From assembly GCA_050951325.1 (NCBI GenBank), contig JBMNIW010000012.1:96001-160000 (forward strand): a stretch of DNA of 64,000 nt. Reading direction: 5' to 3'. The notes below the pieces were generated by a model, which saw nothing but the letters and a program-made list of their open reading frames with translations, was not told the origin of the DNA and ran no database searches. The stretch is from Clostridia bacterium (lineage in GTDB: Bacteria > Bacillota > Clostridia > UBA1212 > DUPL01). Positions 19,071 to 53,699 of this stretch are shown in pieces. Positions within the stretch are counted from its first letter, which is position 1. Every line of letters starts with the position of its first letter. Made by a program: the position numbers and the translations under genes.

Positions 19071-19481
19071 TCATCTTAATGGTACAATCTTACGCCAAAG
19101 AGGAATCTTGAATCTTTGGCGTATTTTTTTTGCATGCAACGTTTCCTTTCTTCTGTATATCTTTGACACCACTCCAACCACATGTTCGGGAAAAACAATG
19201 CCGTCTGTTCTTTTGTACGCATCGCCTTTTGTCACGTATCCAAGGTCAGTTTTTCTGTAGACCCTGCGCAGGACAAATATACCTTCAGCAGGTTCAAGCA
19301 TAACTATGTCTCCGATATCAAGGTCCCTGCCATCGGAGTAAACAAGCTCTATCTTGTCAATTCCTTTTCTGACAAGAGGTTCCATATCACTTGTTATTGC
19401 AGTAAACCTGACACCTTCGCATACTTTCAAAAGGCTTCTAATAGCTGGGAGCAAATCCTTAACAAATATGTCCACAAGCAT
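19071..19481 (-). CDS. S24/S26 peptidase-like protein, probably catalytically degenerate
   Basis: TSDMEP in place of GxSMxP; IGDIVM; VLRRV in place of HR; TKGDA; VVGVV. Confidence 0.7.
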   Translation of the reverse strand: MLVDIFVKDLLPAIRSLLKVCEGVRFTAITSDMEPLVRKGIDKIELVYSDGRDLDIGDIVMLEPAEGIFVLRRVYRKTDLGYVTKGDAYKRTDGIVFPEHVVGVVSKIYRRKETLHAKKIRQRFKIPLWRKIVPLR

Positions 19482-19482
19482 T

Positions 19483-19953
19483 CTAAACCCCTTTTATTAT
19501 TCTCCTTCTAATTCTTGCCACCAAAGTGTAGAGATATAACAGCTGCCTGCGAAAGATTCTAAGCTTTCTCCACATTGTAAAGACCAAACACCAAACAACA
19601 TTATTACAGTCAATGCTTAAATCTCCTCTGTATATTCTCTCAACCCTGCCAATAACATCACAAACAGGGACGCTTCCATCGCTGTAAAGGCAGGCATCCC
19701 CTATTGTATAAACCGTTCCCCCCCTCACCTTATATATTCTATGAAGTATATATTTATTGCATATTCTAAATAAAACTATATCCCCGAGCTTTACCTTGCA
19801 AAATGTACCGAGCAGAACCTTGTCTTTGTTGTGCCGTATAAAAGGCAGCATGCTGTTTCCGGACACAGTGAATTTAACCCTCAAGTTTTGTCTTAGCAAT
19901 TCCTCAACTAGAGGGAACAAATCCTTACACGACACTATTCTCTTATACGTCAT
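19483..19953 (-). CDS. S24/S26 family peptidase (Ser/His type, no N-terminal TM); candidate leader peptidase
   Basis: VSGNSMLPF, LGDIVLF, YILHRI, IGDA and VIGRV motifs. Confidence 0.8.
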   Translation of the reverse strand: MTYKRIVSCKDLFPLVEELLRQNLRVKFTVSGNSMLPFIRHNKDKVLLGTFCKVKLGDIVLFRICNKYILHRIYKVRGGTVYTIGDACLYSDGSVPVCDVIGRVERIYRGDLSIDCNNVVWCLVFTMWRKLRIFRRQLLYLYTLVARIRRRIIKGV

Positions 19954-19967
19954 TGCAGCCTTAACAC

Positions 19968-20786
19968 CTACAAATCAAGTATTGCCTTTTTTAGTGTCTC
20001 AACTGCCGTGTAATCCTTTACGCATTCAAGCTTCAGCATGGGTATGCTCGTTACCATGTCGTCAATATAATCCAGGGCATAGTTCATAAGCTCCACACTC
20101 CACTTTGGAGCAAATACATGTTCAGCAAGGTTTAGAAATGCTTCATAGGGATTTAGTCTTGTTGCCATGTTTCGTTTACTCTTTTCCAGCATGACAAATA
20201 CATCAATCTTTATCTTTCGATTCACAAATTCTCCTGATGTCCCGCACCAAGGCTGACCGAAGGCATGCCATACACCTTCGACTTTACGGCATAATGCTCT
20301 ATCCCCGTTTATGACCAATGCGTTTTCATAATCTCTCCACATTCTTGCATGGGTGGTCTTTCCACCAGCTGACTCCGCACATAGGATGATCCCTTTTCCG
20401 TTCCATTCAAGTACAACACCATGAAACACAACTCCTCCATAAGGAAGAACTGCGTACGAGAAGGGCTTTTTTAGTTCGTAGTATATTACATGGTCGATCC
20501 TGTCATTTTTCTTGCCTGCATAGATGCTCCACTTTCTCCAATCCTTACTTGCACTTAGAACGTTCTGGTTCTTAAGCTCAATTTTGTAACCATCTTCTGT
20601 TACATCAACCACCTTGTCGTCTTCAATAGTAATACAATTATTGTCTAACACAACTTCCAGCTCAAAATCGCTATCTTTCTTGTCACAAACAAAAGATTTG
20701 AACGCAAGGGCATGAGGTGTAAACATATCCAAATCAGCTTTGATGCAATATCCGCCAATGTTTAAATATGTATACTCCACTTCCAT
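19968..20786 (-). CDS. HPr-kinase-like P-loop protein (RiPP-associated kinase type)
   Basis: FHGVVL...GIILCAESAGGKTTHARMW...INGDR...PWCGTSG. Confidence 0.72.
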   Translation of the reverse strand: MEVEYTYLNIGGYCIKADLDMFTPHALAFKSFVCDKKDSDFELEVVLDNNCITIEDDKVVDVTEDGYKIELKNQNVLSASKDWRKWSIYAGKKNDRIDHVIYYELKKPFSYAVLPYGGVVFHGVVLEWNGKGIILCAESAGGKTTHARMWRDYENALVINGDRALCRKVEGVWHAFGQPWCGTSGEFVNRKIKIDVFVMLEKSKRNMATRLNPYEAFLNLAEHVFAPKWSVELMNYALDYIDDMVTSIPMLKLECVKDYTAVETLKKAILDL

Positions 20787-20791
20787 TTCAA

Positions 20792-21106
20792 TCAGCTCTG
20801 TAACTCTCCAAAATAGAAACCTGGATGTTTTGTATTACCTATATTATCTTTCATCCCATTAGCATAAGGATCAAAGGTTATGTCTTTATTTAGATATCTG
20901 TCGAGCAAGTCATCTATAGCTGCAAATACTGCGGCAGCACTACAATCATGCAGTGTTCCGCTATTAAAACTAACATTATATGATTTATTATCAACTTTTA
21001 GAGTCCCTTTAAAGTTAAAATGTTTGTAGCCAAAACACGTATCTGCAATGCTTTCCCCTAAGCAAATTTCTTCAAATCTTAACTTTGGCTTTTCATACAT
21101 TTTCAT
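20792..21106 (-). CDS. Candidate RiPP precursor (~104 aa) with RRE-type leader YEKPKL, three Cys and a C-terminal Ser
   Basis: MKMYEKPKLRFEEICLGESIADTC...GELQS; AGGGAG RBS; overlaps the end of the rSAM gene. Confidence 0.65.
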   Translation of the reverse strand: MKMYEKPKLRFEEICLGESIADTCFGYKHFNFKGTLKVDNKSYNVSFNSGTLHDCSAAAVFAAIDDLLDRYLNKDITFDPYANGMKDNIGNTKHPGFYFGELQS

Positions 21107-22163
21107 ATATTTCACTCCCTTTCGTTGAGATTAGCTTTTCTAATATCTTATGACTGTATTCAGCCTCTCGGCATAGATATTTTGGATTGCCAAATAAACT
21201 CTTTGTTTCACAGTATCTCAAGGCAGGACATGCCATGCAAAACAACTTATACTTGCAATCGCGACATGCGTCTATTTGCTTCAATTCAGGCACAGTTTCC
21301 ACAAATGTCTCCCAAGCCTTTTCAAAACCCTCGGTCAATGGATCTGTCATAAACTCTCCAAGCAATTGGCATCCAATTAATTTCCCATCCCAAGTAATTG
21401 TATATGACTGGATACCTGCGTCGCATCCAAATAATTCGCTCTTCTTTTCTTCTACTGTATATTCTATCTCTATTGGCTTATCAATTAAATCCTTCGACAA
21501 TCTCTCCAAATACGCTCCATAAATAAAATCAATATTCTCCTCAGGTGACAATCTGCATGCATCCACTTCAGCAATGCCATGGCGTGTGGTTCTACAAACA
21601 ATCCTGCTCCTGCTAAAAGTAATGTCCTCTCCAAAACTCTTTGCCAGCATATATATGTTTTTGTAATCTTCAATGTTGTCTTTAATAATCGTTGTTCTAA
21701 TATTAATTGATGAAGGCAAAGTCGTTAATTTCTTCACTCCATCCAGCATTCTGTAAAAAGCATTGCCGCTACCGCACACCTTATCATAAATGGATGGATT
21801 GGAGCCATAAACAGATATTCCAATCTGATGAGGAGGACACTTTTCCAACGCATCCATTACTTTGTCGCTGACAAGAGTTGCATTGGTGTACAGGACAATA
21901 ACAAATCCCATTTTATATATTTCCGTATAAATCTCGCAAAAGTCCTTTCGCAGCATAGGTTCTCCACCTGTCAGCAAAAGCTGCAATGTTCCGCAGTCCC
22001 TTGCCTGCTTTGCGAGATCAATCCACTCTTTGGTTGTAAGTTCCCTAAGGCCCAAACTGCTTATTGTGTCCTCATCCACCCTGACAAGGCACATTTTGCA
22101 TTTCAGATTGCACCTGGCAGTCAGTTCAAAGGTACCGTTTAAAGGTATTCTCTCTTCGTGCAT
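21093..22163 (-). CDS. Radical SAM/SPASM-domain peptide maturase
   Basis: CNLKCKMC (CxxxCxxC), LTGGEP, YTNATL; SPASM C..G...ITWDGKLIGC...CRDCKYKLFCMAC..C; ATG 22163 after GGAGGAG. Confidence 0.93.
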   Translation of the reverse strand: MHEERIPLNGTFELTARCNLKCKMCLVRVDEDTISSLGLRELTTKEWIDLAKQARDCGTLQLLLTGGEPMLRKDFCEIYTEIYKMGFVIVLYTNATLVSDKVMDALEKCPPHQIGISVYGSNPSIYDKVCGSGNAFYRMLDGVKKLTTLPSSINIRTTIIKDNIEDYKNIYMLAKSFGEDITFSRSRIVCRTTRHGIAEVDACRLSPEENIDFIYGAYLERLSKDLIDKPIEIEYTVEEKKSELFGCDAGIQSYTITWDGKLIGCQLLGEFMTDPLTEGFEKAWETFVETVPELKQIDACRDCKYKLFCMACPALRYCETKSLFGNPKYLCREAEYSHKILEKLISTKGSEIYENV

Positions 22164-22164
22164 T

Positions 22165-22437
22165 TTATTCCTCCTCCATAAGAATACCAAAAGTTTTGAG
22201 TTCCTCCAAAAAGTCACTTGCGTCACTTTTTGCAATCTCCAAAGGAACCTCATACTCCCTCATAATACAAGAGACCAGCTCTTCAAAACCCTTCTCCTCT
22301 TGGAGTACTTCGAATATATATGCGCCTGTTTCATTTAAGACCATAATACCGTTAGCTTTTTTTATTGCCTCTCCAAGTGGGACTATAATATATGCATCTC
22401 TAATTTTCCTCAGTACAAAATTTTGATTGACACGCAT
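22165..22437 (-). CDS. PqqD family / RiPP recognition element (RRE)
   Basis: FVLRKI..YIIVP...LNETGAYIFEVL...EYEV...KSDASDFLEELKTFGIL. Confidence 0.88.
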   Translation of the reverse strand: MRVNQNFVLRKIRDAYIIVPLGEAIKKANGIMVLNETGAYIFEVLQEEKGFEELVSCIMREYEVPLEIAKSDASDFLEELKTFGILMEEE

Positions 22438-22450
22438 TTGCAGCACCTCG

Positions 22451-22717
22451 CTATTCTTCCAGCATTTTTTGCTCTTTAAGGATGGATATGAATGCCTGGA
22501 CATCCTGACGAGCTTCCTCTTCCGTAACGTCATATTCACTTATCAGACTGTCAACTAGTTCGTCAAATGTAGTCTCTTCCATTAGTTTACCGAACAAAAA
22601 CGCTGCTGTATTATTAACTGCAATTACACCATCCAGGTCCACCACACTATCTTCTACTGGAATAATAACGTTAGTACCTGCGATTTTGCGCATAATGTAA
22701 TTTCCGCAAACCTTCAT
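22451..22717 (-). CDS. PqqD family / RRE (second copy)
   Basis: YIMRKIAG..VIIPV...VNNTAAFLF...EYDVTEEEARQDVQAFISIL; GGAGG RBS. Confidence 0.88.
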   Translation of the reverse strand: MKVCGNYIMRKIAGTNVIIPVEDSVVDLDGVIAVNNTAAFLFGKLMEETTFDELVDSLISEYDVTEEEARQDVQAFISILKEQKMLEE

Positions 22718-22739
22718 TAACCCTCCTCCCTTCTTAATA

Positions 22740-23627
22740 CTAACCAACATAGACCACAAGGCGCTGTGTAACACTCACCCCTTCCGAATTACTTACAGAA
22801 TAAGTGACAGTGTACTGACCTTCCTTATTCGTATCCACTTTGCCCGAGAAACCAACTAACTCCGTTAAATCACCATCCTTCTGATCATACGCACTCTTTA
22901 TATACTCATAAGGATTAAATACATCCCCTTTTTTCAAAGCCACGGTTTTTCTTGTAAGTATCAGGGTAGGGCCTGCACTACTACCTTCTACTTCAACAAA
23001 AATGGACTTGCTGGCAACATCGTTGAACATGTTTTGTACAGTGAAAGTAAATTTGTATTTGAAAGAGTCTGCAAATGCTTCATAGTTATACGAAATGGTC
23101 CGAGTAATGTCATTTCCAAAGCCGTCATCCGCCCTTATGGCATCCTTTTCAATCAGAACAGTCACCAAATCATCAAGATCCTCACTGGTTATTACAACAT
23201 CATTTGAAACATGTATTGACGGTCCTGTGTAGTTTATGAGGCTGAGGCGTCTTTCATTGATTGCTAAATTCCCATTTGAGCCAACCACGCTGTACCTTAC
23301 AATCTTCTTTCCAATTGAAGTGTCAGTAACAATAATTACATTGACCTGGTCGGTGATGTCTGTCTTGCCGTCGATATCCAAAGCAGTCACACCTTCCATA
23401 ATGTCAAAAGCCTCTTTTCCAGAGTACTTCATATCACCGAGCGAAAGTCTGATGGTTGGTTTCTTGTTTGAATCAACACCGCTAATGTTTGAAAGGCTCG
23501 CTTTAATAATATCCTTGTTGATTGCATATGCTATGTCCTGATGAAAAAAGTACAACATAAACAAACTGACTATCGATACTGCGGCAAGCACTATTATCGT
23601 TATATTCTTAACAATCTTCAATTGCAT
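22740..23627 (-). CDS. Membrane-anchored protein with tandem bacterial Ig-like (DUF5011-type) domains
   Basis: N-terminal TM; TALDIDGKTDITD, ADDGFGNDIT and AYDQKDGDLT..VDTNKEGQYTVTYSVSNSEG repeats. Confidence 0.75.
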   Translation of the reverse strand: MQLKIVKNITIIVLAAVSIVSLFMLYFFHQDIAYAINKDIIKASLSNISGVDSNKKPTIRLSLGDMKYSGKEAFDIMEGVTALDIDGKTDITDQVNVIIVTDTSIGKKIVRYSVVGSNGNLAINERRLSLINYTGPSIHVSNDVVITSEDLDDLVTVLIEKDAIRADDGFGNDITRTISYNYEAFADSFKYKFTFTVQNMFNDVASKSIFVEVEGSSAGPTLILTRKTVALKKGDVFNPYEYIKSAYDQKDGDLTELVGFSGKVDTNKEGQYTVTYSVSNSEGVSVTQRLVVYVG

Positions 23628-23633
23628 CACCTC

Positions 23634-24845
23634 CTAATTAACAAGACCATATTCTTCAAGAAGAGCAAGCCTCCTTCTTGCAACACTCAAACCTTTAACC
23701 ATTCTAGGCTCTTCTGTTCTTCTCATATATTTAATAATTCTTAATACCCACACAACAGGAAGTAAAAAAGGATGTTTCTGAAGTACTGGGTACGAATATT
23801 TAAGATACTCTCTGGAAGGAAAGCATGCCTTCAAAAACCCGAAAATGACATTCCCTTTCTTCCTGTTTAAAGATGCCACCTGTACAACCGGTCCTGAAAA
23901 AACCCTCTCGCTACTGGACTTTCCAAACACTCCTCCTTCAATCATGTCAACAAGCAAAGCAGCACGGTTTGTTACTTTCAAACTTTTGCCAAAAGGAATG
24001 CCAGAAACGTCTAAACTTATCCCCAGTTCATTATTTCCTATGTCAAACAAGCAGTAAAGCAATTGCTCACAACCGAGTTCTCTAACTATTGCAATTATTT
24101 GCTCCCAGCAAATCTGCTCATAGTACTTTTTTGCATAAAGAACCGAATCCATACACTGCCTTATACCTACACCATAACTTATCAAGTGTTTATATAAGTG
24201 AAGGAAGATAAACAGGAAGTGATCCGTGTGACAAAGGGAGTATATTTCACATCCTTCGATTTCCAGCGTTATGCATCTATCAAAGGATTCCCTAAAGTAT
24301 TTATTAAGCGCCTTCCTTACACCCGATAAACCAAATGGATTAACATGCACTTCAATACATAGATTTAAATCAGGGGATATATATGAAATTGCCTGAGCAT
24401 CCTTTGGGTCTTTGTTTGCACTTGCTGCATCCACTTTGTATCCGTATCTTAAAAGCAAGTCATGGCAAAGATCATAATCTTCCTTTCGTATGTAAATATC
24501 TTCGTCAGAAGATGTCCGAAGATCCGGTGATTCATACAAACTTCTTACAACAAGACCTTTTAACACAAGAGGCTTAACTCCGTTTTGTACAAGATAATTG
24601 TACACCTTAATGAAAGCAAAAGTTCTTTTAGTCTGGCTTATCATGTTGTATAACGCCTGACTACGCATACTCTCTTTACCTTCAAACTCAAGCAAACTTG
24701 CAGCATCATAAACAAGAGGGAGAAGGTTGTGTTTGCGGGCAAGGGTAAATACCTCATCAAGGTCCACATCTAATTCAATATTCGGCTTTTGGTTTCTTAT
24801 ATGACTTTCAATAAGCTTCAAGAACGTCTTGTAGGTCGGGTTCAA
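23634..24845 (-). CDS. Nucleotidyltransferase family protein (NTP_transf_5-like)
   Basis: PLVLKG...Y..PDLRTSSDEDIYI, IEVH, HLYKH...GVGIRQCMD; TTG start after GGAGGTG. Confidence 0.85.
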   Translation of the reverse strand: MNPTYKTFLKLIESHIRNQKPNIELDVDLDEVFTLARKHNLLPLVYDAASLLEFEGKESMRSQALYNMISQTKRTFAFIKVYNYLVQNGVKPLVLKGLVVRSLYESPDLRTSSDEDIYIRKEDYDLCHDLLLRYGYKVDAASANKDPKDAQAISYISPDLNLCIEVHVNPFGLSGVRKALNKYFRESFDRCITLEIEGCEIYSLCHTDHFLFIFLHLYKHLISYGVGIRQCMDSVLYAKKYYEQICWEQIIAIVRELGCEQLLYCLFDIGNNELGISLDVSGIPFGKSLKVTNRAALLVDMIEGGVFGKSSSERVFSGPVVQVASLNRKKGNVIFGFLKACFPSREYLKYSYPVLQKHPFLLPVVWVLRIIKYMRRTEEPRMVKGLSVARRRLALLEEYGLVN

Positions 24846-26586
24846 GACTTTCACCTCCGCCAAATAACGTACACTTGCCGCCACTTACTCGGTACACTCT
24901 GTCACAAATACCAAGCACGCTTGGCCTGTGTGTTGTAAGTATGCAGGTTACTTCGCCCTTTATCCTCTTTATATTCATCAGAATCTTTCTCTCGGTATCA
25001 ACATCGAGGCTGCTGGTGGCTTCATCAAGGAGCAGTATTGGAGCTTTCCTTATCAACGCCCTGGCAATAGAGAGCCTTTGTATCTGTCCTTCCGAAAAAT
25101 TCTTTCCTCTTTCCTCAACATTTGAGTTGATTCCATCCGGCAGGTTTGATACAAAATCATACGCATCTGCCATTACCAACGCATCCTTTATTTCCTCTTC
25201 TGTTGCATCGGGCTTTGCCAGTCTCAAGTTATCTGCAATTGTACCTGAGAATAACATATTGTCCTGAGGAACATAGGAAAAAAGAAGTCTTGCCTTGTCG
25301 TCAAACACAATGTTTTTATGCTTCTCGTTAAAGGGATAAATGCCAAGTCTTCCTTTTTGATGTTTTAATTGTCCAAGCAATATCTTAAGCAGGGTGGTTT
25401 TTCCTCCTCCCGAAGGACCAACCAGTGCAATGGTCTCCCCAGGCCTTGCCAGGATGCACGCATCTTCAAACACCTTCTTTCCTTTTCTGTAACTGAAGGA
25501 AACATCCTCAAGACTAATTACCACTCCTCTTTTCCTTGCACTTTTAAGTGTCTGCTCATCATTGGTAGCATCACAGTCATCTGTTGGCTTTTCAATGATT
25601 TCCATAATTCTTCCTGCTGATGTTGTTGCAGATATGGAAGATGGGATTAAGGATATTAAGGAAGAGAAGCTTGATCTGAGCATACCTGCGAGCTGCAGGA
25701 ACAATACCATTGTTCCAAAGGTAATGAAACCTTGGTACAATCTGAATACCGCCCAGCCAAAACAAAGATATGATACAATTAGTCCGGTTATCGACATAAA
25801 CAGATGAGTGTGTATTGAAAACTTGTTGTAGTCCAGGCTTGTTGTCTTAAAGTTTTCCAACTGCTCTTTGTGTCTGTTTGTAAATACAGACTTCAGCCCC
25901 AGAGCTTTAATAGCTGCAATATTTACAAAAGACTCTTCATGGTAGGACATAAGTTTCGAACTTGCTTCCCTCATTTTTTTGTTGTGCTTCCTCATTTTCT
26001 TTACCAGTAAATCCGATACAATCATTGATACTGGTGCACTGGCAAGAGCCAATATAGCCATAACATAGTCAAAGTACATGATGATTATAAATGAGCCGGT
26101 AAACTGCAATACCCTTGTTATGAAGCTTGGTATCATGCCTACAACACTACCCGCAACAGTCCTTGCATCAGAGTTGATTCTATTTAGAAGGTCTCCTGAA
26201 TGAAAGTCCATTAAATGCTCCGAGTCAATATTTAATATGCTGTCATAGATGTCTATTCTTATGTCATTTATTACCCTTAAATCAATTTTTGAGGTAATCC
26301 TGTTGGTTAGTGCTCCTGTCAATATCTCAAACAAACCAAAAGATATGTATATTACTGCTATCGTGACAATAACTTTTATCTGCCTGTTTGCAAGGCTGTC
26401 TATTAAATATTTGGAGGCAACAGCATTGAGAAGCCCGAATATTGCGCCAATGGAAAAGAGGAAGATATAAAATGCGACTTGTGCTTTATATCTTTTTATG
26501 TACCCTAATATCCATTTTGCCTCTATCCACATTTCTTTTAAAGACCCGTCTTGGATCTTCCTCTTTATGTTAAACAGATTCACCAT
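24808..26586 (-). CDS. ABC exporter (fused TMD plus ATPase, no peptidase domain)
   Basis: Multi-TM N-half with SGDLLNRI; GPSGGGKTT, YVPQ, FSEGQIQR, LLLDEATS and TTHR. Confidence 0.93.
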   Translation of the reverse strand: MVNLFNIKRKIQDGSLKEMWIEAKWILGYIKRYKAQVAFYIFLFSIGAIFGLLNAVASKYLIDSLANRQIKVIVTIAVIYISFGLFEILTGALTNRITSKIDLRVINDIRIDIYDSILNIDSEHLMDFHSGDLLNRINSDARTVAGSVVGMIPSFITRVLQFTGSFIIIMYFDYVMAILALASAPVSMIVSDLLVKKMRKHNKKMREASSKLMSYHEESFVNIAAIKALGLKSVFTNRHKEQLENFKTTSLDYNKFSIHTHLFMSITGLIVSYLCFGWAVFRLYQGFITFGTMVLFLQLAGMLRSSFSSLISLIPSSISATTSAGRIMEIIEKPTDDCDATNDEQTLKSARKRGVVISLEDVSFSYRKGKKVFEDACILARPGETIALVGPSGGGKTTLLKILLGQLKHQKGRLGIYPFNEKHKNIVFDDKARLLFSYVPQDNMLFSGTIADNLRLAKPDATEEEIKDALVMADAYDFVSNLPDGINSNVEERGKNFSEGQIQRLSIARALIRKAPILLLDEATSSLDVDTERKILMNIKRIKGEVTCILTTHRPSVLGICDRVYRVSGGKCTLFGGGESLEPDLQDVLEAY

Positions 26587-27997
26587 AATACCTCAACTTC
26601 CTGTAGTAGGGATATTTGTATAAATAACCGTACCTGTAACCGTAACTGCCTATACCCGTTTCTGTGAATGTTAAAACTGCTCCGAGCACATTCACGCGGC
26701 TGTATGACAAAGACGTCAAAGAGTCTATTATCAGACTTCTTTTGGCATAATCCTGTCTTATGCAGTAAATTGCATGGTCCGCATATTTTGCAAAAGCAAC
26801 AGCATCTGGAACCATGTGACATGGTGGAGTGTCTATTATTACAAAATCAGCCATGTTTCTAAGCATTGCAATAACTTCTACAAGGGAGTAATGTGACAAT
26901 ATCTTGTTTGGATTTTGATATGATTTGTGTCCTGCAAGTAAGCTAATATTGTATTTGTTAATATAATATATGCTGTGTTCTATGGTTTGTTCTCCCTCTA
27001 CAATCTCCCCGATACCTTTAAGAGGCATGACAATATCCAACATGTTCAGGACCGAAGGATTCCTCAAATCACCATCTACAAGGATTACTGAGTAACCCAT
27101 TTGTCCAAGAGAAATACTTAAGTTTATGGCAACGGTTGTCTTTCCTTCCTGGGGTACACTGCCTGCTATTACAATTACATTGTTCTTTTTGTCCGATGTT
27201 TCCTTTAGCAATTTCGTTCGTATCGAACGGATCGACTCGTTAAAAGCACTTCCTACTTTCTCATTCAGGATGTTTATGGAATAATCAATGTCTTTTTTTC
27301 GTCTCTTGAACTTCACCACCGGAAGCACTCCAAGGCATTCGAGGTTGAGTATTTTCCTTACATCATCCACCTTTCTTATTGTTGTTCTGGTCAATGCGTA
27401 AAGGAATATAAATCCGCAGCCAAGCACGAACCCTGCCAGAAAGCCTATCTTTGTCATACGGGAATAAATAGGTCGGTTTGTAGGAGTTGTCGGCACTTTA
27501 GGGGATGACAGCATGTTCATCTTTGTATCTCCTATTACAAACTCAGCCACTTTTGGATAGTTCCTAATTACCGAGTTAAGTATGTTGTATGCGTCATTTG
27601 GGTTTATGCTGGTTACCATTATTGTAAAAAGATTTGTGTCGGGTATTGCTACAGCGTATATACTTCCATTAAGGTAAGGTACGTTCAGATCCTCGCACAC
27701 AATTTCCTGAAGAAGATAGCTGTTTAAAATGTATGGAAATGTTACCGCCATCTGGGATGCGGTCTGACTATTGTAGTAGTAGCGGTAGCTGTACCCTGCG
27801 TAATTGTCCTCATATGCTGCAAGAATTGTGAAGGTGGCTTTTGATGTGTATAACGGAGTATACTTTCTTGCAGAGACATAAAAGAACAGCCAGGACATAA
27901 CGCTTGCAAGCACAAGCACAAGATACCACAATCTTTTTATCCCCTTAATCAAGTCACTTAGAAGTACCATAATATCTATAGAGGTTTCATTATCCAT
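26570..27997 (-). CDS. Fused Wzz-like modulator plus BY tyrosine kinase (Wzc/CpsCD-like) no. 2
   Basis: Two TMs flanking the P.YTSKAT loop; GSVPQEGKTT, LVDGDLRNP, IIDTPP; Tyr cluster SYGYRYGYLYKYPYY. Confidence 0.9.
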   Translation of the reverse strand: MDNETSIDIMVLLSDLIKGIKRLWYLVLVLASVMSWLFFYVSARKYTPLYTSKATFTILAAYEDNYAGYSYRYYYNSQTASQMAVTFPYILNSYLLQEIVCEDLNVPYLNGSIYAVAIPDTNLFTIMVTSINPNDAYNILNSVIRNYPKVAEFVIGDTKMNMLSSPKVPTTPTNRPIYSRMTKIGFLAGFVLGCGFIFLYALTRTTIRKVDDVRKILNLECLGVLPVVKFKRRKKDIDYSINILNEKVGSAFNESIRSIRTKLLKETSDKKNNVIVIAGSVPQEGKTTVAINLSISLGQMGYSVILVDGDLRNPSVLNMLDIVMPLKGIGEIVEGEQTIEHSIYYINKYNISLLAGHKSYQNPNKILSHYSLVEVIAMLRNMADFVIIDTPPCHMVPDAVAFAKYADHAIYCIRQDYAKRSLIIDSLTSLSYSRVNVLGAVLTFTETGIGSYGYRYGYLYKYPYYRKLRYYGESV

Positions 27998-29411
27998 GAC
28001 GCACCTCCTTTGTGTCGTCTTTCTTCTTATACAAAGGGACTCTTCTGTAATAGTAGCTTTTATACATGTTGTTTTTTAGAGAGTTAATAAAAGGAAAACC
28101 TTTAAGATTGTTTAAAACAACGCCAAGCAAATGGCATTTGCTTTGCTCCAGTCTGTCAATTGCATCATTTATTTCTCCAACTCTTGCAAAGTCCTGTTTA
28201 ACTACTAGTATTGAAGCATCTGTAATGTTTGCGAGTATTTCTCCATCGGACACTGCACTAAGCGGCGGTGTATCTATGATTACGAAGTCCATTTCCTTTG
28301 CGTATCCGTCCAAAAGATTTTGAAAATCCTTGCTTGCAAGAATCTCTGCAGAGTCTTTGTATGATTCCTTGTTCAGCATGAGCCATACATTGCTCCTTTC
28401 ATCAACTTTTGGTTTTTTCCCCTGGATGAAATCCCTAAAACTACCTGCATCCTTTTTCCCTAGTATTTTGTACAACGCAGGCTTTTTTAGATCCGCATCC
28501 AACAGTAGAACTTTATGGTTGTTCTCAGCGAGAGTTAGCGCAATATTTGCACACACTGTGGACTTTCCTTCGTTTTCATTTACGCTTGTAACCAGTATGC
28601 TTTTCAATCCCATACGTTGGCAGCTGTTTTCTATTTTCATGCACAATTTTTTGTATGAGCATACAAAATCAAAACTTGCAAACATATCAGTAACAAGTGG
28701 CGTTCTCTTTGCCCGCTTTATAATCTGCCTTATGGTTTTGTACTTTTTCTCATGCCTTATGGTTGAAAGCAGTTTTGTATCCAGCTTGGAATTTGCTTGT
28801 TTTTCATTCTTTACAGTATCCCTAAAGTATGAAAGAGCACAAACTGCACAGGTTGACAAAAACGCACCTGCTGCAAAGGACAGTTTTTTTATCCTTGACT
28901 CATCCATGCTGTTTACCGGCCACCCTGACATCTCAATGTCTTCAATGACTTCAAGGTGCGCATTCCCATATATGTAATCAGACACAAGCCGGTAGTTTTC
29001 AATAATGAGCTTCAAGGTCTTGAAAGCATCTTCAGGATTTTTGGCTGTTACTCCAACCACCAAAAGGTTTGTTTCAGGTATGGCGTAGGCATCAATTTTA
29101 CCAGGAAGTTCATCATACCCTGCAATTTGAGACGCTTTCTCCTTCAAAATATCACTGTCCATTATTTGGGTGAAAATGTTTGCCATTTCTATCGTGGTAC
29201 TTAGATTGGCATACATGGAACTGGTTGCGTCTTTTGTACTCACTACAAATGTAACCTGACTTCTGTACTCAGGCACATATGTGTATCTGACATATGATAC
29301 TGCAAGCATCGCAACAACCGCTCCGCCAAGTACTATTGCCCACAAGTTGAAAAGAATATCTCTCAGCAAAGTAAAGATATCGATATCTTCGACACTAAAC
29401 TCTTTCTCCAT
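27990..29411 (-). CDS. Fused Wzz-like modulator plus BY tyrosine kinase no. 1
   Basis: PEYRSQVTFVV loop between TMs; SVNENEGKST, LLDADLKKP, IIDTPP; YKSYYY tail. Confidence 0.9.
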   Translation of the reverse strand: MEKEFSVEDIDIFTLLRDILFNLWAIVLGGAVVAMLAVSYVRYTYVPEYRSQVTFVVSTKDATSSMYANLSTTIEMANIFTQIMDSDILKEKASQIAGYDELPGKIDAYAIPETNLLVVGVTAKNPEDAFKTLKLIIENYRLVSDYIYGNAHLEVIEDIEMSGWPVNSMDESRIKKLSFAAGAFLSTCAVCALSYFRDTVKNEKQANSKLDTKLLSTIRHEKKYKTIRQIIKRAKRTPLVTDMFASFDFVCSYKKLCMKIENSCQRMGLKSILVTSVNENEGKSTVCANIALTLAENNHKVLLLDADLKKPALYKILGKKDAGSFRDFIQGKKPKVDERSNVWLMLNKESYKDSAEILASKDFQNLLDGYAKEMDFVIIDTPPLSAVSDGEILANITDASILVVKQDFARVGEINDAIDRLEQSKCHLLGVVLNNLKGFPFINSLKNNMYKSYYYRRVPLYKKKDDTKEVRHG

Positions 29412-30247
29412 TACGCATTCCCTTCTTCAACAACACATACCATGCTTGTTGTATAGGTTTCGGCACCTTCGCTCACACTATAGTAGATTTTGTACTCTCC
29501 TGGCTTGGATGTGTCCAGATCGGAATAGATATTCACATGGGAGATGTCAAGAAACAGACCGTCAATGCCCGTTACAGACTGTATGTAATCTTTTGGGTTA
29601 ACTTCCTCACCAGTATTTACATACAAAACGTAACTCTCCAGTTTAATCTTTGGCGTTTTGACATTCCTTTCCCTGACCACCACCTCAAAGCTCAAATCCA
29701 CCACATCGCCTTTTGAATTTGTAACCTTGGCATTTACTGTGTACACTCCGGGTACATTTGTTGTCAGATTGCCAATGTCATACTTTATCTTGTTGCTTAT
29801 GTCCCCATCGATGAGACAATAGCATTTTATGAAGTCTTCCATGTTTATAGTACTGCCGATATAAAACTGTGGTTCATGGTCAATTTGAAATCTTGGTGAT
29901 TCGTAGTCTGTGTACTTTACCTTTCTTGTAAGTTTGGACACGTTGTTATCGCTGTCGCACACCGCATACGTTATGTTGCATACGCCCTTCTCAAGAAACT
30001 TTGATACGTTTTCAATGAGTATTTTGTCAGTCACATCCCCATCCTTGTCGTCATGGGCAGACAACCCTTCAAACAACTTGTCCTTATCCATAATGCTCAC
30101 CTCAATTACTTTACGGTCGCTTGTTATGCTCGGATATGTTCCATTGGTTTTTACTCCGTACACTCCAAACTGGATAAAGTAAAAGATGCCTGTCACAATG
30201 GACAAGAGAAAGACAACCATTCTGAAAATTTTCACAAAAACCCCCAC
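29411..30247 (-). CDS. Membrane-anchored protein with tandem bacterial Ig-like domains
   Basis: N-terminal TM; AHDDKDGDVTD, LIDGDISN..PGVYTV and LDTSKPGEYKIYYSV. Confidence 0.75.
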   Translation of the reverse strand: MGVFVKIFRMVVFLLSIVTGIFYFIQFGVYGVKTNGTYPSITSDRKVIEVSIMDKDKLFEGLSAHDDKDGDVTDKILIENVSKFLEKGVCNITYAVCDSDNNVSKLTRKVKYTDYESPRFQIDHEPQFYIGSTINMEDFIKCYCLIDGDISNKIKYDIGNLTTNVPGVYTVNAKVTNSKGDVVDLSFEVVVRERNVKTPKIKLESYVLYVNTGEEVNPKDYIQSVTGIDGLFLDISHVNIYSDLDTSKPGEYKIYYSVSEGAETYTTSMVCVVEEGNA

Positions 30248-30963
30248 CTATCAATATTCTCGTCTTTTAATATTCTCCTTGGATTTATATAAAATAACGT
30301 TTTTGCATATTCAGAACCGTAGCGGTAACAAATATAATCGTACGCTTCGTCTAGTCTGGTGGTTCTTTGGTATGGACTGTGGGCGTCACTAGCGACTATA
30401 TGTACAAGACCATGTTTAAGCATGTATTTGGCCAATTTTTGCGCAGTTGCTCCAAATTGACCAAGTACGCTCCCTTTGTTAACTTGAAATATACAACCTT
30501 GGCTTGCCAGTTGCATTAGTAGACTTGTGTCATCATAAAACAGCTCATATCTTTCGGGATGTGCAATGATTGGAATGAGATTTGCGTTTATGATAGATTT
30601 GATATTTGTAAGAATGTTATGAGTTAAGTCTAAGACGGGTAATTCGATTAATATGTATCTGGTGTTGTTAATTGTTATCAGTTTATTGTCCTTTACTAGG
30701 TCAACCACATCTTTTGTAAGGTAAATTTCCATTCCTTTGTACAAGGTTATTGGTATTTCTTTTGTTAAATCCTGCAGTTTCTTAAAACAGTTTTCGAACC
30801 ATTCTCCATAGTAGTTGTTATGTATCGGGATATTACTGTGCGGCGTTGCTACCAATGCTCTTACTCCGCACTGACATGCCATCTCCAGCATTCTGACGGA
30901 TTCGTAGTAAGACACAGAACCATCATCGACACCTGGTATCAGGTGTGCATGAATGTCTATCAT
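30232..30963 (-). CDS. cpsB: CpsB/CapC (YwqE-type) PHP-family tyrosine phosphatase
   Basis: MIDIHAHLIPGVDDGS, ATPH, AHPERY and VASDAH. Confidence 0.92.
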   Translation of the reverse strand: MIDIHAHLIPGVDDGSVSYYESVRMLEMACQCGVRALVATPHSNIPIHNNYYGEWFENCFKKLQDLTKEIPITLYKGMEIYLTKDVVDLVKDNKLITINNTRYILIELPVLDLTHNILTNIKSIINANLIPIIAHPERYELFYDDTSLLMQLASQGCIFQVNKGSVLGQFGATAQKLAKYMLKHGLVHIVASDAHSPYQRTTRLDEAYDYICYRYGSEYAKTLFYINPRRILKDENIDRWGFL

Positions 30964-31057
30964 TTTATCGCCTTCTTAAATGAATGCCAAATTTCCCGTG
31001 TTGTTTGGAAACTGTGAATAAAGTGTTTTTCGTTGCTGTGTTTTGGGATTACACACA

Positions 31058-31086
31058 ATTATATCAGTGCAATTTATTAAAGTAAA
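31058..31086 (-). promoter_or_regulatory. Candidate sigmaA promoter of the 14-gene operon
   Basis: Minus strand TTTACT-17 bp-TATAAT with extended TG, ~95 bp upstream of the cpsB ATG; palindrome TTTATTTCC-caa-GGAAATAAA at 31104-31124 just upstream. Confidence 0.6.
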
Positions 31087-31148
31087 TACTTTTGGGTAAT
31101 AACTTTATTTCCCAAGGAAATAAAAGTACAATATTCCCCAATGTTATT

Positions 31149-31640
31149 CTACTCTTTCCCTTTAATAAGCGCTTCTTTATCAAGCACTGCAAGTTTTACA
31201 TCAATGTCATAATCCTGAAGAAATTCTTTAATTGCAGAGGTAGCCACTTTAAGCGCTTCATCTTTAGGATAGCCATATATTCTGCTTGATATTAAAGGAA
31301 AAGCTATGCTTTTACATTCATGCTCCACAGCCAGTTTCAATGAGTTTGTATAAGCATTGTGTAAGAGACGCAGATTATCCTCTTTACTCCACTGGCTGTA
31401 TATGGGTCCTGCAGTGTGGATTACATACTTTGCAGGCAGATTAAAGCCAGGGGTAATAACTGCTTCTCCTGTTTTTATGGGTGCAAGTTTGTTGCATGCT
31501 TCTTGAAGTTTGCTTGCTCCGGCAGCTCTAAAAATAGCTCCGCAAACACCGCCACCCATTTTTAGCTGGGTGTTGGCAGCGTTGACAATCGCATCCACCT
31601 TCAATTTTGTTATGTCCTGCTGAACAATCTCAAATGACAT
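31149..31640 (-). CDS. Macro domain protein (ADP-ribose binding/hydrolase, YmdB-like)
   Basis: QDIT...DAIVNAAN...GGGVCGAIFRAAG, VIHTAGP, IAFPLISSRIYGYP. Confidence 0.9.
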   Translation of the reverse strand: MSFEIVQQDITKLKVDAIVNAANTQLKMGGGVCGAIFRAAGASKLQEACNKLAPIKTGEAVITPGFNLPAKYVIHTAGPIYSQWSKEDNLRLLHNAYTNSLKLAVEHECKSIAFPLISSRIYGYPKDEALKVATSAIKEFLQDYDIDVKLAVLDKEALIKGKE

Positions 31641-31679
31641 TGCACAACCTCCATTAGACAGCTTTTATCAAATAAAATA

Positions 31680-31709
31680 GCCAGCAGCTCGCTTATCGAA
31701 ACTGCTGGC
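31680..31709 (-). terminator. Rho-independent terminator
   Basis: GCCAGCAG...CTGCTGGC stem followed by TATTTTATTT on the minus strand. Confidence 0.65.
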
Positions 31710-31723
31710 ATAATTCAGCTTAA

Positions 31724-32713
31724 TTATATCGCTTTTACAAGTTCATCTATTAATACCAGGTTGCTTAATCTTTCTAGTTTGATTTCTGTCTTTCTGCAGA
31801 AATCGGCTAAAGTATCATAACAAATGTCACGCTTGCAGTATATCACTTTGGGACGCCCATGAACTGTAATCTTCTGCGTTATGAAATCATAGATTTCTTT
31901 AGCAGGATTTTGTGTTGGCAAAACAACTTTTACACCCAGAATTGATTCAGACAAGTTCTCTCCGAGTACGACCAATCTGCCTATTGCAGGCCTGTCCAGA
32001 TCTTCGTTATAAATTGTTGAATCTATGTACACTAAATCAAGTTCCAGTTCTGAATCGGTAGCTGGCATCTTCTTTACAAGATTAATCACTTCATCGTCAT
32101 GTATCGGCATAATTTTATTTACATCGGGGGACACTTCAAGAAATTGCTGCGTGTATGAGTAATTGTTGTTTCCAACAAAGTTTCTGTAGAGCACGTTGCC
32201 GTCCTTGATTGAAAAGTTCATATTTCCCTTTGAATAATCTTTAACAAACTCATTGAACTGTTCAAAAAACTCTTTTAAGAAAAGTACTTCGCCTTTATCT
32301 ATCATGTATGGTGCATACCCAGGTCTAATCGATACAAACTGTATCCATTCATTTTTACCGCGAAAAGATATTCCAAGCTCTCTTAACTTCTCAAGTTGCA
32401 TTCCAAGCATTTCCTGTCTGTCGCAGAAATAACAGATTAAATAATTCTGTTCACATTTTACCTGATATGTATCGTCCTTGTTGCTTAGATATTCAGAGTA
32501 TTTTGCCAGAGATGTTCTGTTCGGATAAATTGCGATTGCTATTGCATCGGATTCCTCACCAGTTACTATACAATAACATGGCTCATCTCGCCCGGGTATA
32601 TCCAGCGCCAGTATCCAATTATCGCCGACATACTGCCAAGGTTTCAGGCTTTTTGTCACTTTAGCCACTTCATAAAGCTCTGTCCATTCCTGAACCGACG
32701 CATCCACGAACAT
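31724..32713 (-). CDS. Conserved hypothetical protein (DUF6930/DUF7309-like)
   Basis: W.ELY.....LKPW, ELGISFRGKNEWIQF.S..PGYAP, GRP, DFC.KT.I.L; paralogue of the neighbour. Confidence 0.6.
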   Translation of the reverse strand: MFVDASVQEWTELYEVAKVTKSLKPWQYVGDNWILALDIPGRDEPCYCIVTGEESDAIAIAIYPNRTSLAKYSEYLSNKDDTYQVKCEQNYLICYFCDRQEMLGMQLEKLRELGISFRGKNEWIQFVSIRPGYAPYMIDKGEVLFLKEFFEQFNEFVKDYSKGNMNFSIKDGNVLYRNFVGNNNYSYTQQFLEVSPDVNKIMPIHDDEVINLVKKMPATDSELELDLVYIDSTIYNEDLDRPAIGRLVVLGENLSESILGVKVVLPTQNPAKEIYDFITQKITVHGRPKVIYCKRDICYDTLADFCRKTEIKLERLSNLVLIDELVKAI

Positions 32714-32888
32714 TTTAATAATTCCTTTCAATTTATGATTATGAATATAATATAACACATTTTCACAGGTTTGTAAATAGTTAATATTACCTCTTGCGGT
32801 TGGCGTCAAAATGGAAAGACATATTTCACGCTGCTAACAAACTGGAAATAATCACGGATGCGTCCATATTCAGTTTTATGTATTGCAA

Positions 32889-33896
32889 TTAGTCAAACAT
32901 CATTGAAAACAAAAAGTGGTCAATACTGGGAAGTCTTCCTTCCTTGAAAAGATGTATGCCTGTTTTGGAACAAAAGTCATCCAATAGCTCCTCACATATG
33001 TCTTTCGTGTAGTGTATTTTTCCAGGTCTGCCTACCTTTCCAATTGCTGAAAAAACAGCATCAAAAGTCATTTCAGCAAGATCGTCGTTAGGTAGAATTA
33101 TCCTTGTTTCAAGGATCTCACCTGAATTCCTGTTGCTAAGTATCAAAAGCCTTACAACCGGGTCCCTTTCAAACTGAGTGTCCTTTATTTTCGACTCAAC
33201 AAAGGTTATGTCAATATCAAAGCTGGCTCCGCTGTACGGAATCTTCTTGATTCTTTGAATCTGTAATTCATTTTCATACTTGTAGTAATCCGACTGTGCA
33301 TTGACTATGGGAACCTGCTTTTCTATGGTCATCCATCTCTTCTCATCATCGTCATAATATCTGCATAACGCAAAGCCATCATCAAACCTTACATCAATTT
33401 TGTTTGTGTTATAGTCTTCAATTGCATGGCAAATCTGCTCTATACATTCAGTAAGCAGCATGACTTCAATCTTGTCCGGGTCTGCAGGAGCATAGCATTT
33501 CCTTTTGGACAGGAAAAACACCCAGTTCATTCTCCCTCTAAAGGACAGGCCAAGTTCTTTAATAAGGTTATACTGGTTCTTTGGTACATTCTCTCTGTTG
33601 CCGATGCACATGGTAAATATGTCAACAGAACATATGTCGTTGAATACTTCCTCGTGCGTGTAATCCGGTTTTAAAAAGGGCTTGATAAATCTCGCATAGG
33701 CTGAGGAATCCCTGAGTATGTGAATTGATATAAGTTCGGGATTCTCGTCTATGCTTACATAATACATCTCGTCCCTATCGGGCATTTTAATTGAAATTGT
33801 GTCTAAAAAACTAAGAGATTCCCATGGTCTCAAGTTCTTCAGCCTGATTGCATGTCTGTATAATTGTGCCCAATCATCAAGTGTTGCTTTAATCAT
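32889..33896 (-). CDS. Conserved hypothetical protein (DUF6930/DUF7309-like paralogue)
   Basis: WAQLY..LRPWE, ELGLSFRGRMNWVFFLS, GRP, DFCSKTGI. Confidence 0.6.
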   Translation of the reverse strand: MIKATLDDWAQLYRHAIRLKNLRPWESLSFLDTISIKMPDRDEMYYVSIDENPELISIHILRDSSAYARFIKPFLKPDYTHEEVFNDICSVDIFTMCIGNRENVPKNQYNLIKELGLSFRGRMNWVFFLSKRKCYAPADPDKIEVMLLTECIEQICHAIEDYNTNKIDVRFDDGFALCRYYDDDEKRWMTIEKQVPIVNAQSDYYKYENELQIQRIKKIPYSGASFDIDITFVESKIKDTQFERDPVVRLLILSNRNSGEILETRIILPNDDLAEMTFDAVFSAIGKVGRPGKIHYTKDICEELLDDFCSKTGIHLFKEGRLPSIDHFLFSMMFD

Positions 33897-37837: not shown

Positions 37838-37854
37838 TTATTCTCTAACCTCTG

Positions 37855-38566: not shown

Positions 38567-38615
38567 GTATTTTTCACTAGGCATTTAATACAACCCCTAC
38601 TATCAATAACTATAA

Positions 38616-53645: not shown

Positions 53646-53699
53646 ACGGTCTTGAATTAACTTGAATCTATTGGTATAATTGTTGAAAATATAATAGGG

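Follow-up and report, generated by a model that had tools for sequence, protein, structure and literature searches.

A predicted radical SAM-bearing, long-precursor LPP-like system genetically fused to capsule control in a Clostridia bacterium

A 64,000-nucleotide stretch of the genome of a Clostridia bacterium (GenBank assembly GCA_050951325.1, contig JBMNIW010000012.1, positions 96,001 to 160,000; hereafter the window) carries a 14-gene operon in which genes resembling those for a ribosomally synthesized and posttranslationally modified peptide (RiPP) are intermingled with genes for capsule control. The closest described relatives of its peptide genes are the linear polyphosphorylated peptide (LPP) clusters of Bacillota (Popov et al., Nat Commun 2026, PMC13381572), which encode an archaeal-type SpI-like peptidase (LppS), a discrete RiPP recognition element (RRE; LppB), an HprK-like kinase (LppK), an uncharacterized NTP transferase (LppN), and an MsbA-like exporter (LppD). 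According to that report, LPP precursors are 35-200 amino acids (aa) long and bear the motif YxxPxVLxHQxIxFETxxS, LppK polyphosphorylates Ser3 of the core peptide, and leader removal by LppS (catalytic residues S29, H68, and D93) requires presentation of the leader by LppB. The LppB-leader and lasso B1-leader complexes have both been solved structurally. LPP clusters sit in capsular polysaccharide loci, and the authors describe the biological role of LPP and paeninodin-type peptides, which are frequent in capsule loci, as unknown. Both kinds of cluster have a very patchy distribution resembling that left by horizontal gene transfer (HGT) (PMC13381572).

Three other systems offer points of comparison. 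Among tailored lasso peptides (paeninodin with PadeK, pseudomycoidin with PsmK and PsmN, and the product of BsfK), work on pseudomycoidin reports that PsmK phosphorylates a C-terminal Ser and that PsmN is required for the presence of a hexose on that phosphate (PMC6993621). In lasso leaders generally, the YxxPxL motif is described as spanning positions -17 to -12 (PMC10368454). The SynChlorMet cassette is represented by the models ScmC (TIGR04249), ScmD (TIGR04248), ScmE (TIGR04250), and ScmF (TIGR04251), and a literature search found no paper on it. To our knowledge, this cassette has no known product. Capsule control in Gram-positive bacteria is exercised by CpsB/CpsC/CpsD in Streptococcus, CapA/B/C in Staphylococcus, and TkmA/PtkA/PtpZ in Bacillus. 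Our literature searches also found no paper that joins radical S-adenosylmethionine (radical SAM) RiPP genes with HPr kinase/PqqD genes or with exopolysaccharide kinase or chain-length genes, and nothing relevant on PF14907 (NTP_transf_5).

The operon comprises 14 co-directional open reading frames (ORFs) that run along the minus strand from 30963 to 19071, with adjacent ORFs overlapping or separated by no more than 14 nt (spacing measured from the first possible start of each ORF). Family assignments were made with Pfam and NCBIfam for these 14 genes, and with Pfam also for 45 other window ORFs of at least 120 aa; they confirm the gene list and the tight, single-strand packing given by a first-pass annotation. 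The operon is a composite of a peptide module (module A; genes 5, 6, and 8-14) and a capsule-control module (module B; genes 1-4 and 7) that travel together. The two halves are intermingled, with the PF14907 gene, the exporter gene, and the second gene for an Ig-like protein placed between them in reading frames that overlap. Judged by its gene families, module A is predicted to be a clostridial, radical SAM-containing relative of the LPP pathway.

Matches to glycosyltransferase, Wzx, Wzy, Bac_transf, or Asn_synthase families are absent from the 14 operon genes and the 45 other ORFs, in keeping with the earlier statement that a lasso cyclase is absent. Rfam searches at gathering scores found no RNA element at the operon. 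The candidate sigmaA promoter of the first-pass annotation corresponds to the best promoter-like site, of sigma-70 type, at 31058-31086 on the minus strand (TTTACT, a 17-nt spacer, and an extended -10 element, TG-TATAAT; 10 of 12 positions match and the TG is present), which lies ~95 nt upstream of cpsB within the 185-nt gap preceding this gene. Because promoter-like sites are as frequent in the region (37) as in shuffled sequences (37.3), it is a candidate only.

Genes 5, 6, 8/9, 11, 12, and 13 are the predicted counterparts of all five core enzymes and the precursor described for LPP clusters, and the two systems further share the lack of a macrolactam cyclase and a position in or next to capsular polysaccharide genes. 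Thus, the label of an uncharacterized system, applied to the operon at first, does not hold for its core, since kinase activity, leader removal, and RRE-leader binding have been demonstrated experimentally for that gene set (PMC13381572). Gene 5 (24808-26586, minus strand, as are all operon coordinates below) is predicted to encode an MsbA-like half-transporter of the ATP-binding cassette (ABC) type, the LppD counterpart (592 aa; ABC_membrane plus ABC_tran). Its best family matches are MsbA-related, and it carries no peptidase domain: the match to NHLM_micro_ABC1 starts at profile position 153, past the peptidase domain of that model. Gene 6 (23634-24884; ~400 aa) matches PF14907 at E = 2.3e-42 and is the putative counterpart of PsmN and LppN, with a role assigned by analogy to what is described for PsmN (PMC6993621).

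Two discrete RREs are encoded, PqqD1 by gene 8 (22451-22774, with Met at 22717 as the likely start; PqqD, E = 5.8e-15) and its paralogue PqqD2 by gene 9 (22165-22539; PqqD, E = 2.2e-13), whereas relatives have only one. The best NCBIfam match of PqqD1 is to lasso PqqD chaperones, below the cut-off. The four best structural matches of the RRE profile are TbiB1 (1.6e-7), TfuB1, PbaB1 (9x90; 1.3e-6), and LppB (9x8z; 9.8e-6), a set that relates the protein to both lasso B1 and LppB; the profile does not separate the LPP clade from the lasso clade.

The putative kinase, gene 12 (19968-20786; 272 aa), is a ScmC-like/HprK-like P-loop protein and the predicted counterpart of LppK and PsmK. Its family keeps H122, S139, G142, K143, T145, and D162 invariant. 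The HprK-like label of the first-pass annotation finds support in remote profile matches, with HprK giving the best structural matches of a 27-homologue profile (1jb1, E = 5.6e-4) and 14 of the 27 family members touching Pfam Hpr_kinase_C at E <= 0.1, but the sole NCBIfam match is to ScmC, at 21.2 bits against a cut-off of 125.

Gene 13 (S24a; 19483-19953) is a predicted archaeal-type (SipW-like) signal peptidase I homologue and LppS counterpart. It gives weak S24 and archaeal signal-peptidase matches (30.6 bits to TIGR02228, below the 51.85 cut-off) and has no N-terminal membrane segment. Residues Ser34, His71, and Asp86 are kept in 17 of 18 peptidase homologues and correspond to S29, H68, and D93 of LppS (PMC13381572), a correspondence drawn from the conserved residues. 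The single exception lacking both Ser and His is the degenerate paralogue encoded by gene 14 (S24b; 19071-19481), in which Asp replaces Ser and Arg replaces His. Consequently, the earlier description of two S24/S26 peptidases is borne out by weak matches for both proteins but not by the catalytic residues of the second, which is probably inactive. No such extra copy was found in the relatives' loci compared, where the peptidase gene is single.

The features that set the operon apart from published LPP clusters begin with gene 10 (21093-22253), which encodes a predicted radical SAM/SPASM maturase (Radical_SAM, E = 8.7e-20). The terms "radical SAM," "SPASM," and "Clostridi" are absent from the main text of the LPP report, whose supplementary domain table has one column headed "Radical_SAM" and one headed "Wzz" (PMC13381572). 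The translation contains the cluster motif CNLKCKMC (CX3CX2C) and, toward the C terminus, CX12GX4C and CX2CX5CX2C; the Pfam SPASM model gave no match at E 0.01. NCBIfam matches to ScmE (111 bits), WgkB (99 bits), and StsB (residues 41-379) are below the cut-offs, as are full-length matches to the StsB, NirJ2, and GeoRSP radical SAM/SPASM models. Gene 10 therefore combines the attributes of a radical SAM/SPASM RiPP maturase, namely the cluster motif, SPASM cysteines, a partner RRE, and a neighbouring precursor.

A resemblance to SynChlorMet is also apparent, given that both systems have a PqqD-like protein, a radical SAM/SPASM enzyme, and a ScmC-like P-loop protein, and that NCBIfam places gene 10 nearest to ScmE and gene 12 with ScmC alone. 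However, all scores fall far below the model cut-offs (ScmC, 21.2 versus 125; ScmD, 19.3 versus 100; ScmE, 111.2 versus 400; ScmF, 64.9 versus 400). Moreover, there is one radical SAM gene here in place of two, and the peptidase, the PF14907 enzyme, the exporter, and the Wzc module are additions.

The putative precursor is encoded by gene 11 (20792-21115), a small protein of 102 aa when translated from the Met at 21100 (102-107 aa depending on the start) that was recognized through alignments and belongs to no known family. It is the only ORF of its kind in the window. Its features include the leader sequence Y-E-K-P-K-L (21097-21080), a near-invariant Ala19, Cys22 (21037-21035), Cys53 (20944-20942), and the C-terminal Ser102 (20797-20795). 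In nearly every related locus, the equivalent ORF lies between the radical SAM and kinase genes, and in 26 loci it is directly 3' of the former. The family alignment contains an N-terminal Y-x-x-P-x-hydrophobic motif, a near-invariant Ala, the sequence A-[DN]-x-C-W, and a second near-invariant Cys ~30 residues later; among closer relatives, the tail ends in P-D-P-S-W-S.

When 1.84 billion representatives were searched with a precursor profile, 201 proteins matched at E <= 1e-3 and 51 at E <= 1e-10, almost all of 100-130 aa. Thus, at least 201 sequence clusters have such a precursor, and no curated model covers them. For the 142 listed representatives of 85-140 aa, the motif YxxPx[LIMVF] occurs within the first 25 residues of 135, versus 1.8 expected from shuffled sequences, and the first Cys follows it by exactly 15 residues in 120 of these 135. 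Of the 142, 112 have Ser as their last residue, and 56 finish with Trp-Ser. NCBIfam gave no meaningful family for 26 precursors, protein atlas matches were to "hypothetical protein" clusters only, and a homologous-protein search returned only the precursor's own cluster.

Structure prediction gave a pLDDT (the predictor's per-residue confidence measure) of 55.5 from 14 sequences, and an AlphaFold model from 121 sequences reached 64.2. Because the latter model consists of one hairpin and one helix at this modest score, the precursor seems closer to a long peptide substrate than to a globular protein. We also observed that one match to the precursor profile, P0016, is a protein of 1218 aa with 18 tandem repeats resembling the Cys...Cys core (AE-x-C-F-G-D ... 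N-G-C-D). These repeats suggest that the core may be a small extracellular unit stabilized by disulfides or cross-links.

In length and in its N-terminal YxxPx-hydrophobic motif, the window precursor falls within the published description of LPP precursors. In contrast, only this portion of the LPP motif and a Glu nine residues past the motif's last position are present, and an Asp or Asn, part of the A-[DN]-x-C-W sequence, occupies the place of Ser3. Because the remainder of the motif and Ser3 are missing, the peptide would not qualify as an LPP by strict motif definition, whereas by gene content the system appears to work like one. Beyond the radical SAM enzyme, it differs from LPP clusters in having a precursor that contains two near-invariant Cys residues and ends in Ser, a pair of RREs, an additional peptidase that is probably inactive, and a single operon shared with genes for CpsB, two Ig-like proteins, and two Wzc proteins.

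The comparison with paeninodin and pseudomycoidin tailoring genes made in the first-pass annotation is apt. Shared features are the B1-type RRE, the ABC exporter, the YxxPxL leader motif, an HprK-like kinase acting on Ser (at the C terminus in the substrates of PsmK, ThcoK, and SyanK), and a PF14907-type enzyme, which is needed there for a hexose on the phosphate. In the lasso register, the near-invariant Ala, 12 residues past the motif, occupies the position of core residue 1. The probable terminal phospho-Ser would place the precursor closer to paeninodin-type substrates than to LppA. However, neither an Asn_synthase-like cyclase nor a B2 cysteine protease is present among the window's scanned ORFs, and the core would be ~85 residues long versus 15-30 in lasso peptides.

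Module B begins with cpsB. Gene 1 (30232-30963) encodes a CpsB-type PHP tyrosine phosphatase of 243 aa (PF19567, CpsB_CapC, E = 6.4e-65), which scores 164.6 bits against the NCBIfam Cps4B model, below its 400-bit cut-off. Gene 2 (Ig1; 29411-30247; 278 aa) specifies a membrane-anchored protein with a hydrophobic N terminus and three stretches matching PF16403 (Bact_surface_Ig-like, E = 6.8e-16); it lies directly 5' of WzcA in every Wzc-module locus examined. A second membrane-anchored Ig-like protein, Ig2, is encoded by gene 7 (22740-23630; 296 aa; Bact_surface_Ig-like, E = 3.5e-15), has an N-terminal hydrophobic segment, and comes after WzcB in L004-type loci (related loci are designated by L numbers and genomes by G numbers).

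The two Wzc proteins are paralogous fusions of a Wzz-like domain to a bacterial tyrosine kinase (BY-kinase). WzcA (gene 3; 27990-29411; 473 aa) matches Wzz at 2.6e-07 and TIGR01007 at 118.5 bits, and WzcB (gene 4; 26570-27997; 475 aa) matches TIGR01007 at 113.2 bits and a CspC-type chain-length determinant at 2.4e-13; both exceed the TIGR01007 cut-off of 108.05. The Walker A, A', and B motifs of WzcA do not vary among 12 homologues, and Tyr residues cluster at its C terminus; in WzcB the Walker motifs are intact and the tail is Tyr-rich. From these sequence features, both paralogues look catalytically competent. A search for related loci seeded with WzcB alone found none. The module resembles Gram-positive capsule control in combining a PHP phosphatase, a Wzz-like adaptor, and a BY-kinase bearing all three Walker motifs and a C-terminal Tyr cluster, but differs in that adaptor and kinase are fused, that the fusion is duplicated, and that it is always accompanied by membrane Ig-like proteins. 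It also lacks the constituents of a Wzx/Wzy-dependent capsule locus: neither the operon nor the window contains an initiating transferase, glycosyltransferase, Wzx, or Wzy gene, and the operon has no LCP gene.

To examine how widely the two modules are paired, the radical SAM protein was used to scan 185,579 species genomes, which gave 35 loci with full-length homologues, and the 14 operon proteins were mapped onto these loci by BLAST. The core of PqqD, radical SAM, precursor, kinase, and peptidase genes is present in nearly all 35, and Ig1-WzcA-WzcB accompanies it in 16. The arrangement is colinear with module B first in L013-L017 and L020, divergent in L004, L006, L008-L010, and L012, scattered in L028, and has module B downstream in L002 and L005. 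In a maximum-likelihood tree of 37 radical SAM sequences, the window protein belongs to a clade with 100/99 support whose 19 rows all have long precursors. Fifteen of these rows are Wzc-linked (the window and 14 of the 18 other loci), in at least four gene orders. Thus, the pairing of the two halves that had been noticed in the window does extend beyond its genome, to other anaerobes. Of the remaining clade members, L003 and L011 belong to loci that contain GT1, pyruvyl transferase, and Wzx genes, and the other two come from contigs whose shortness prevents a judgement (L001, on 2.9 kb, and L007, with the cluster at the contig start); in the L007 genome, a different contig ends with a WzcB-Ig2 pair.

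The absence of glycosyltransferases reported in the first-pass annotation is true of the window but not of its relatives. Glycosyltransferase, Wzx, Wzy, or PGT (phosphoglycosyl transferase) genes directly adjoin the cassette in L003, L005, L011, L013, L022, L025, and L095. Among Wzc-linked loci scanned with Pfam, L005, L010, and L013 have glycosyltransferase, Wzy, or Wzx genes and L012 has sugar-activation genes; no such genes were found within the flanks of L002, L004, L006, L014-L017, and L020. Distant members with short precursors are often in similar company: CapD-like, PF14907, and AsnB-like genes in L019; epimerase, UDP-glucose dehydrogenase, Wzz, BY-kinase, and Wzy_C genes in L021; an initiating transferase and GT1 in L022; a CapD-like gene in L023; LCP in L024; an initiating transferase, GT2, and two GT1 genes in L025; CpsB, Wzc, and Wzy_C in L086; and GT2, GT1, an initiating transferase, and CpsB in L095. 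No polysaccharide genes were found flanking the distant members L018, L029, L032, and L033. Within the flanks of L004-type loci, no exporter gene was found.

Directly beside the PF14907, PqqD, or radical SAM genes of some relatives, we noted a NAGPA-type phosphodiester glycosidase (L003:6813-7685, next to the PF14907 gene) and calcineurin-like phosphoesterases (L011:6284-7159, L019:3609-4454, and L024:8965-9828). Such phosphodiesterase-type neighbours fit sugar-phosphodiester chemistry.

The closest relative of WzcB is in L084 (9510-13926; genome G015, which belongs to the same taxonomic order as the window), within a CpsB-Ig-WzcA-WzcB-ABC-PqqD-radical SAM row. Directly past the radical SAM gene, the row gives way to genes for a serine recombinase, a ParB-like protein, and a relaxase, so that the precursor, kinase, and peptidase genes appear to have been displaced by a mobile element. 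Across 398 evenly sampled genomes of the class, a ScmC-like match is present in 148 and a strong WzcB-like match in 68. Many of the 148 cover only the C-terminal P-loop half (ORFs of ~240 aa). We considered these short proteins as possible lasso kinases and set the idea aside after inspecting two of them (L091:7770-8555 and L093:7141-7848, from G198 and G086), which are stand-alone genes outside peptide clusters, adjoining Amidase_6 in housekeeping surroundings.

These comparisons lead us to a reading that we hold to be reasonably probable, in which the peptide is matured, exported, and then acts jointly with the Wzc/CpsB/Ig module on surface polysaccharide. A PqqD-type RRE would bind the precursor through its Y-x-x-P-x-hydrophobic leader, and the radical SAM/SPASM enzyme would cross-link the precursor, most likely at one or both near-invariant Cys residues. 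The HprK-like kinase would phosphorylate a Ser, most likely the conserved C-terminal one, and the PF14907 enzyme may attach a sugar to the resulting phosphate. The SipW-like peptidase would then cut off the leader, the MsbA-like protein would export the product, and the exported protein would act with module B in making or organizing surface polysaccharide. The first six steps are proposed because of homology to systems tested by others, and the last because of the conserved linkage; we infer every chemical step in this organism, as well as the phospho-site, the radical SAM reaction, and the tie to module B. The sugar transferases for the module B polysaccharide would be encoded elsewhere in the genome. 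Ordinary polysaccharide genes are located 90-100 kb from the operon on the same contig, and the genome (G000) has Bac_transf genes at C4:53882 and C12:25294 and a Wzy_C gene at C12:16862 (contig number and position).

Several points weigh against this proposal. Its support comes from gene content, family assignments, precursor conservation, and linkage rather than from chemistry. The kinase assignment is remote, as its scores indicate (21 bits to ScmC against a cut-off of 125; HprK at E = 5.6e-4). The HQxIxFETxxS part of the LPP leader motif is missing, the phospho-site described for LPP and Bsf peptides is core Ser3 and not a C-terminal Ser, and short-precursor relatives often lack the terminal Ser. 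The LPP report found no detectable activity for LppN (PMC13381572), and the PF14907 gene is missing from the flanks of six Wzc-linked loci (L013-L017 and L020). Furthermore, the 14 Wzc-linked loci of the clade amount to only about four lineages and are not 14 independent events, and the CpsB-Ig1-WzcA-WzcB quartet occurs without module A in L085 (beside spoIIIA), L088 (before LCP and sortase genes), and L089 (with an integrase on one side and a phosphate transporter on the other). Four metatranscriptome runs (digester, biogas, compost, and sludge) contain contig pieces of both halves at >=99% identity and a depth of 2-6, but such contigs do not demonstrate that one transcript spans both halves, and DNA may be present in the libraries.

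The genome sample bears on the same question. ScmC-like and fused Wzc genes are adjacent in only two of the 398 genomes, the window's own (G000) and G358, and are 18-20 kb apart in G125, G179, and G381. Because adjacency is so limited, the coupling is clade-specific, and it could reflect shared islands and not shared function. Searches of 39 further genomes of the order and 397 further genomes of the class, made with a loose first-pass filter that may miss small genes, turned up no long precursor. With so few adjacencies and no other long precursor in these samples, the system is rare and patchy, as the LPP family is described to be (PMC13381572).

Such sparseness is compatible with two separate systems that share a neighbourhood, a peptide for antagonism or signalling and an ordinary capsule-control set, co-located in variable surface islands. 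This account draws on the loci in which module B stands alone (L085, L088, and L089), on those in which module A occurs without Wzc genes (L003, L011, L018, L019, and L022-L025), on the HGT-like distribution of LPP and paeninodin clusters (PMC13381572), and on the finding of the long precursor in one of 40 relatives and one of 398 class genomes, in both cases the window's own. However, it does not readily accommodate the interleaving of the PF14907, exporter, and Ig2 genes in overlapping frames or the retention of linkage through at least four gene orders, and the Wzc-less loci sit in glycosyltransferase/Wzx loci instead. We regard it as unlikely.

Display, polymerization, and glycan priming at the surface were suggested as roles in the first-pass annotation and are speculative. 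One such reading has the modified protein serve as a covalent primer or anchor for a glycan, with the Ser-phosphate-sugar extended by transferases encoded elsewhere and the Wzc pair setting the length. The PsmN-dependent hexose on phospho-Ser (PMC6993621) and the conserved C-terminal Ser invite this idea, as do the GalK-like and sugar-1-phosphate nucleotidyltransferase genes directly past the peptidase gene in L010 and L012, the Wzy_C-domain proteins of 690-712 aa beside the cassette in L021 and L086, and the phosphodiester glycosidase in L003. Yet there is no known product, LppN was inactive in the published system (PMC13381572), and six Wzc-linked loci do without the PF14907 gene. Wzx/Wzy pathways, in addition, use lipid carriers, and the genome has two ordinary Bac_transf initiating transferases. 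We consider this primer role doubtful. The same low probability attaches to its fullest form, in which the radical SAM-cross-linked protein is a covalent glycan acceptor whose C-terminal Ser undergoes phosphorylation, then phosphoglycosylation and extension, and the Wzc proteins and their Ig-like partners control the length and release of a protein-linked phosphoglycan. If that were true, a capsule or matrix polymer would be primed on a ribosomal peptide and not on a lipid.

Finally, it is very improbable that the exported peptide is an autocrine signal sensed by the Wzz-like and Ig-like ectodomains to tune BY-kinase/CpsB phosphorylation and capsule output: despite the tight pairing of a peptide module with a kinase/phosphatase switch, the apparent competence of both Wzc paralogues, and L004-type flanks without an exporter gene, which hint that a dedicated pump may not always be needed, ~85 core residues with structure-like conserved motifs are unusual for a diffusible signal, and no receptor-like feature was found beyond generic Ig and Wzz domains.

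The surroundings of the operon contain further genes of interest. A second, conventional capsule-control set is present 7 kb upstream on the minus strand (37322-39398), consisting of a separate, unfused BY-kinase with a long YGYGYG tail (38616-39398), a CpsB that is short at its N terminus (37855-38490), and a NusG/KOW paralogue (37322-37837). Past it there are no sugar transferases, and two ORFs (36711-37226 and 35611-36663) look like halves of one GH88 gene. Directly 5' of the operon (31149-33896, minus strand) are a macro-domain gene (31149-31640) and tandem paralogues with DUF7309 and DUF6930 (31724-32809 and 32889-33896). In three metatranscriptome runs from different studies, a contig of depth 19-26, compared with 2-6 in the operon, spans the macro-domain gene together with the initial half of cpsB (30474-31700), and these deeper contigs stop inside cpsB at 30474, 30498, or 30512. 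The end of a transcript, an operon boundary that varies among strains, or assembly could account for the stop. On the plus strand, two overlapping ORFs match MatE (45924-46676 and 46612-47211; 45924-47211 overall) and probably derive from a single efflux gene that a frameshift or a sequencing error has divided. Also on the plus strand, a T-box leader (53698-53942; 120 bits) precedes a gene for an AMP-binding enzyme (54021-55661) that is not an obvious aminoacyl-tRNA synthetase.

Relative to the published LPP clusters, what is new here is the radical SAM/SPASM enzyme, the family of ~102-aa precursors with two Cys residues and a C-terminal Ser, and the operonic fusion to a CpsB/Ig/two-Wzc module. 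LPP-type RRE, SpI-like peptidase, and kinase genes are thereby combined with predicted radical SAM chemistry on an unusually long two-Cys precursor, and peptide and capsule-control genes are interleaved in one packed operon whose pairing is kept in several lineages. We infer the export of a small protein that is cross-linked, Ser-phosphorylated, and perhaps phosphoglycosylated, and that works together with the surface-glycan machinery. Considered as a whole, the locus is best described, from its sequence features, as a radical SAM-bearing, long-precursor LPP-like system genetically fused to capsule control, and it provides a compact genetic system for asking what LPP-type peptides do for the cell surface.

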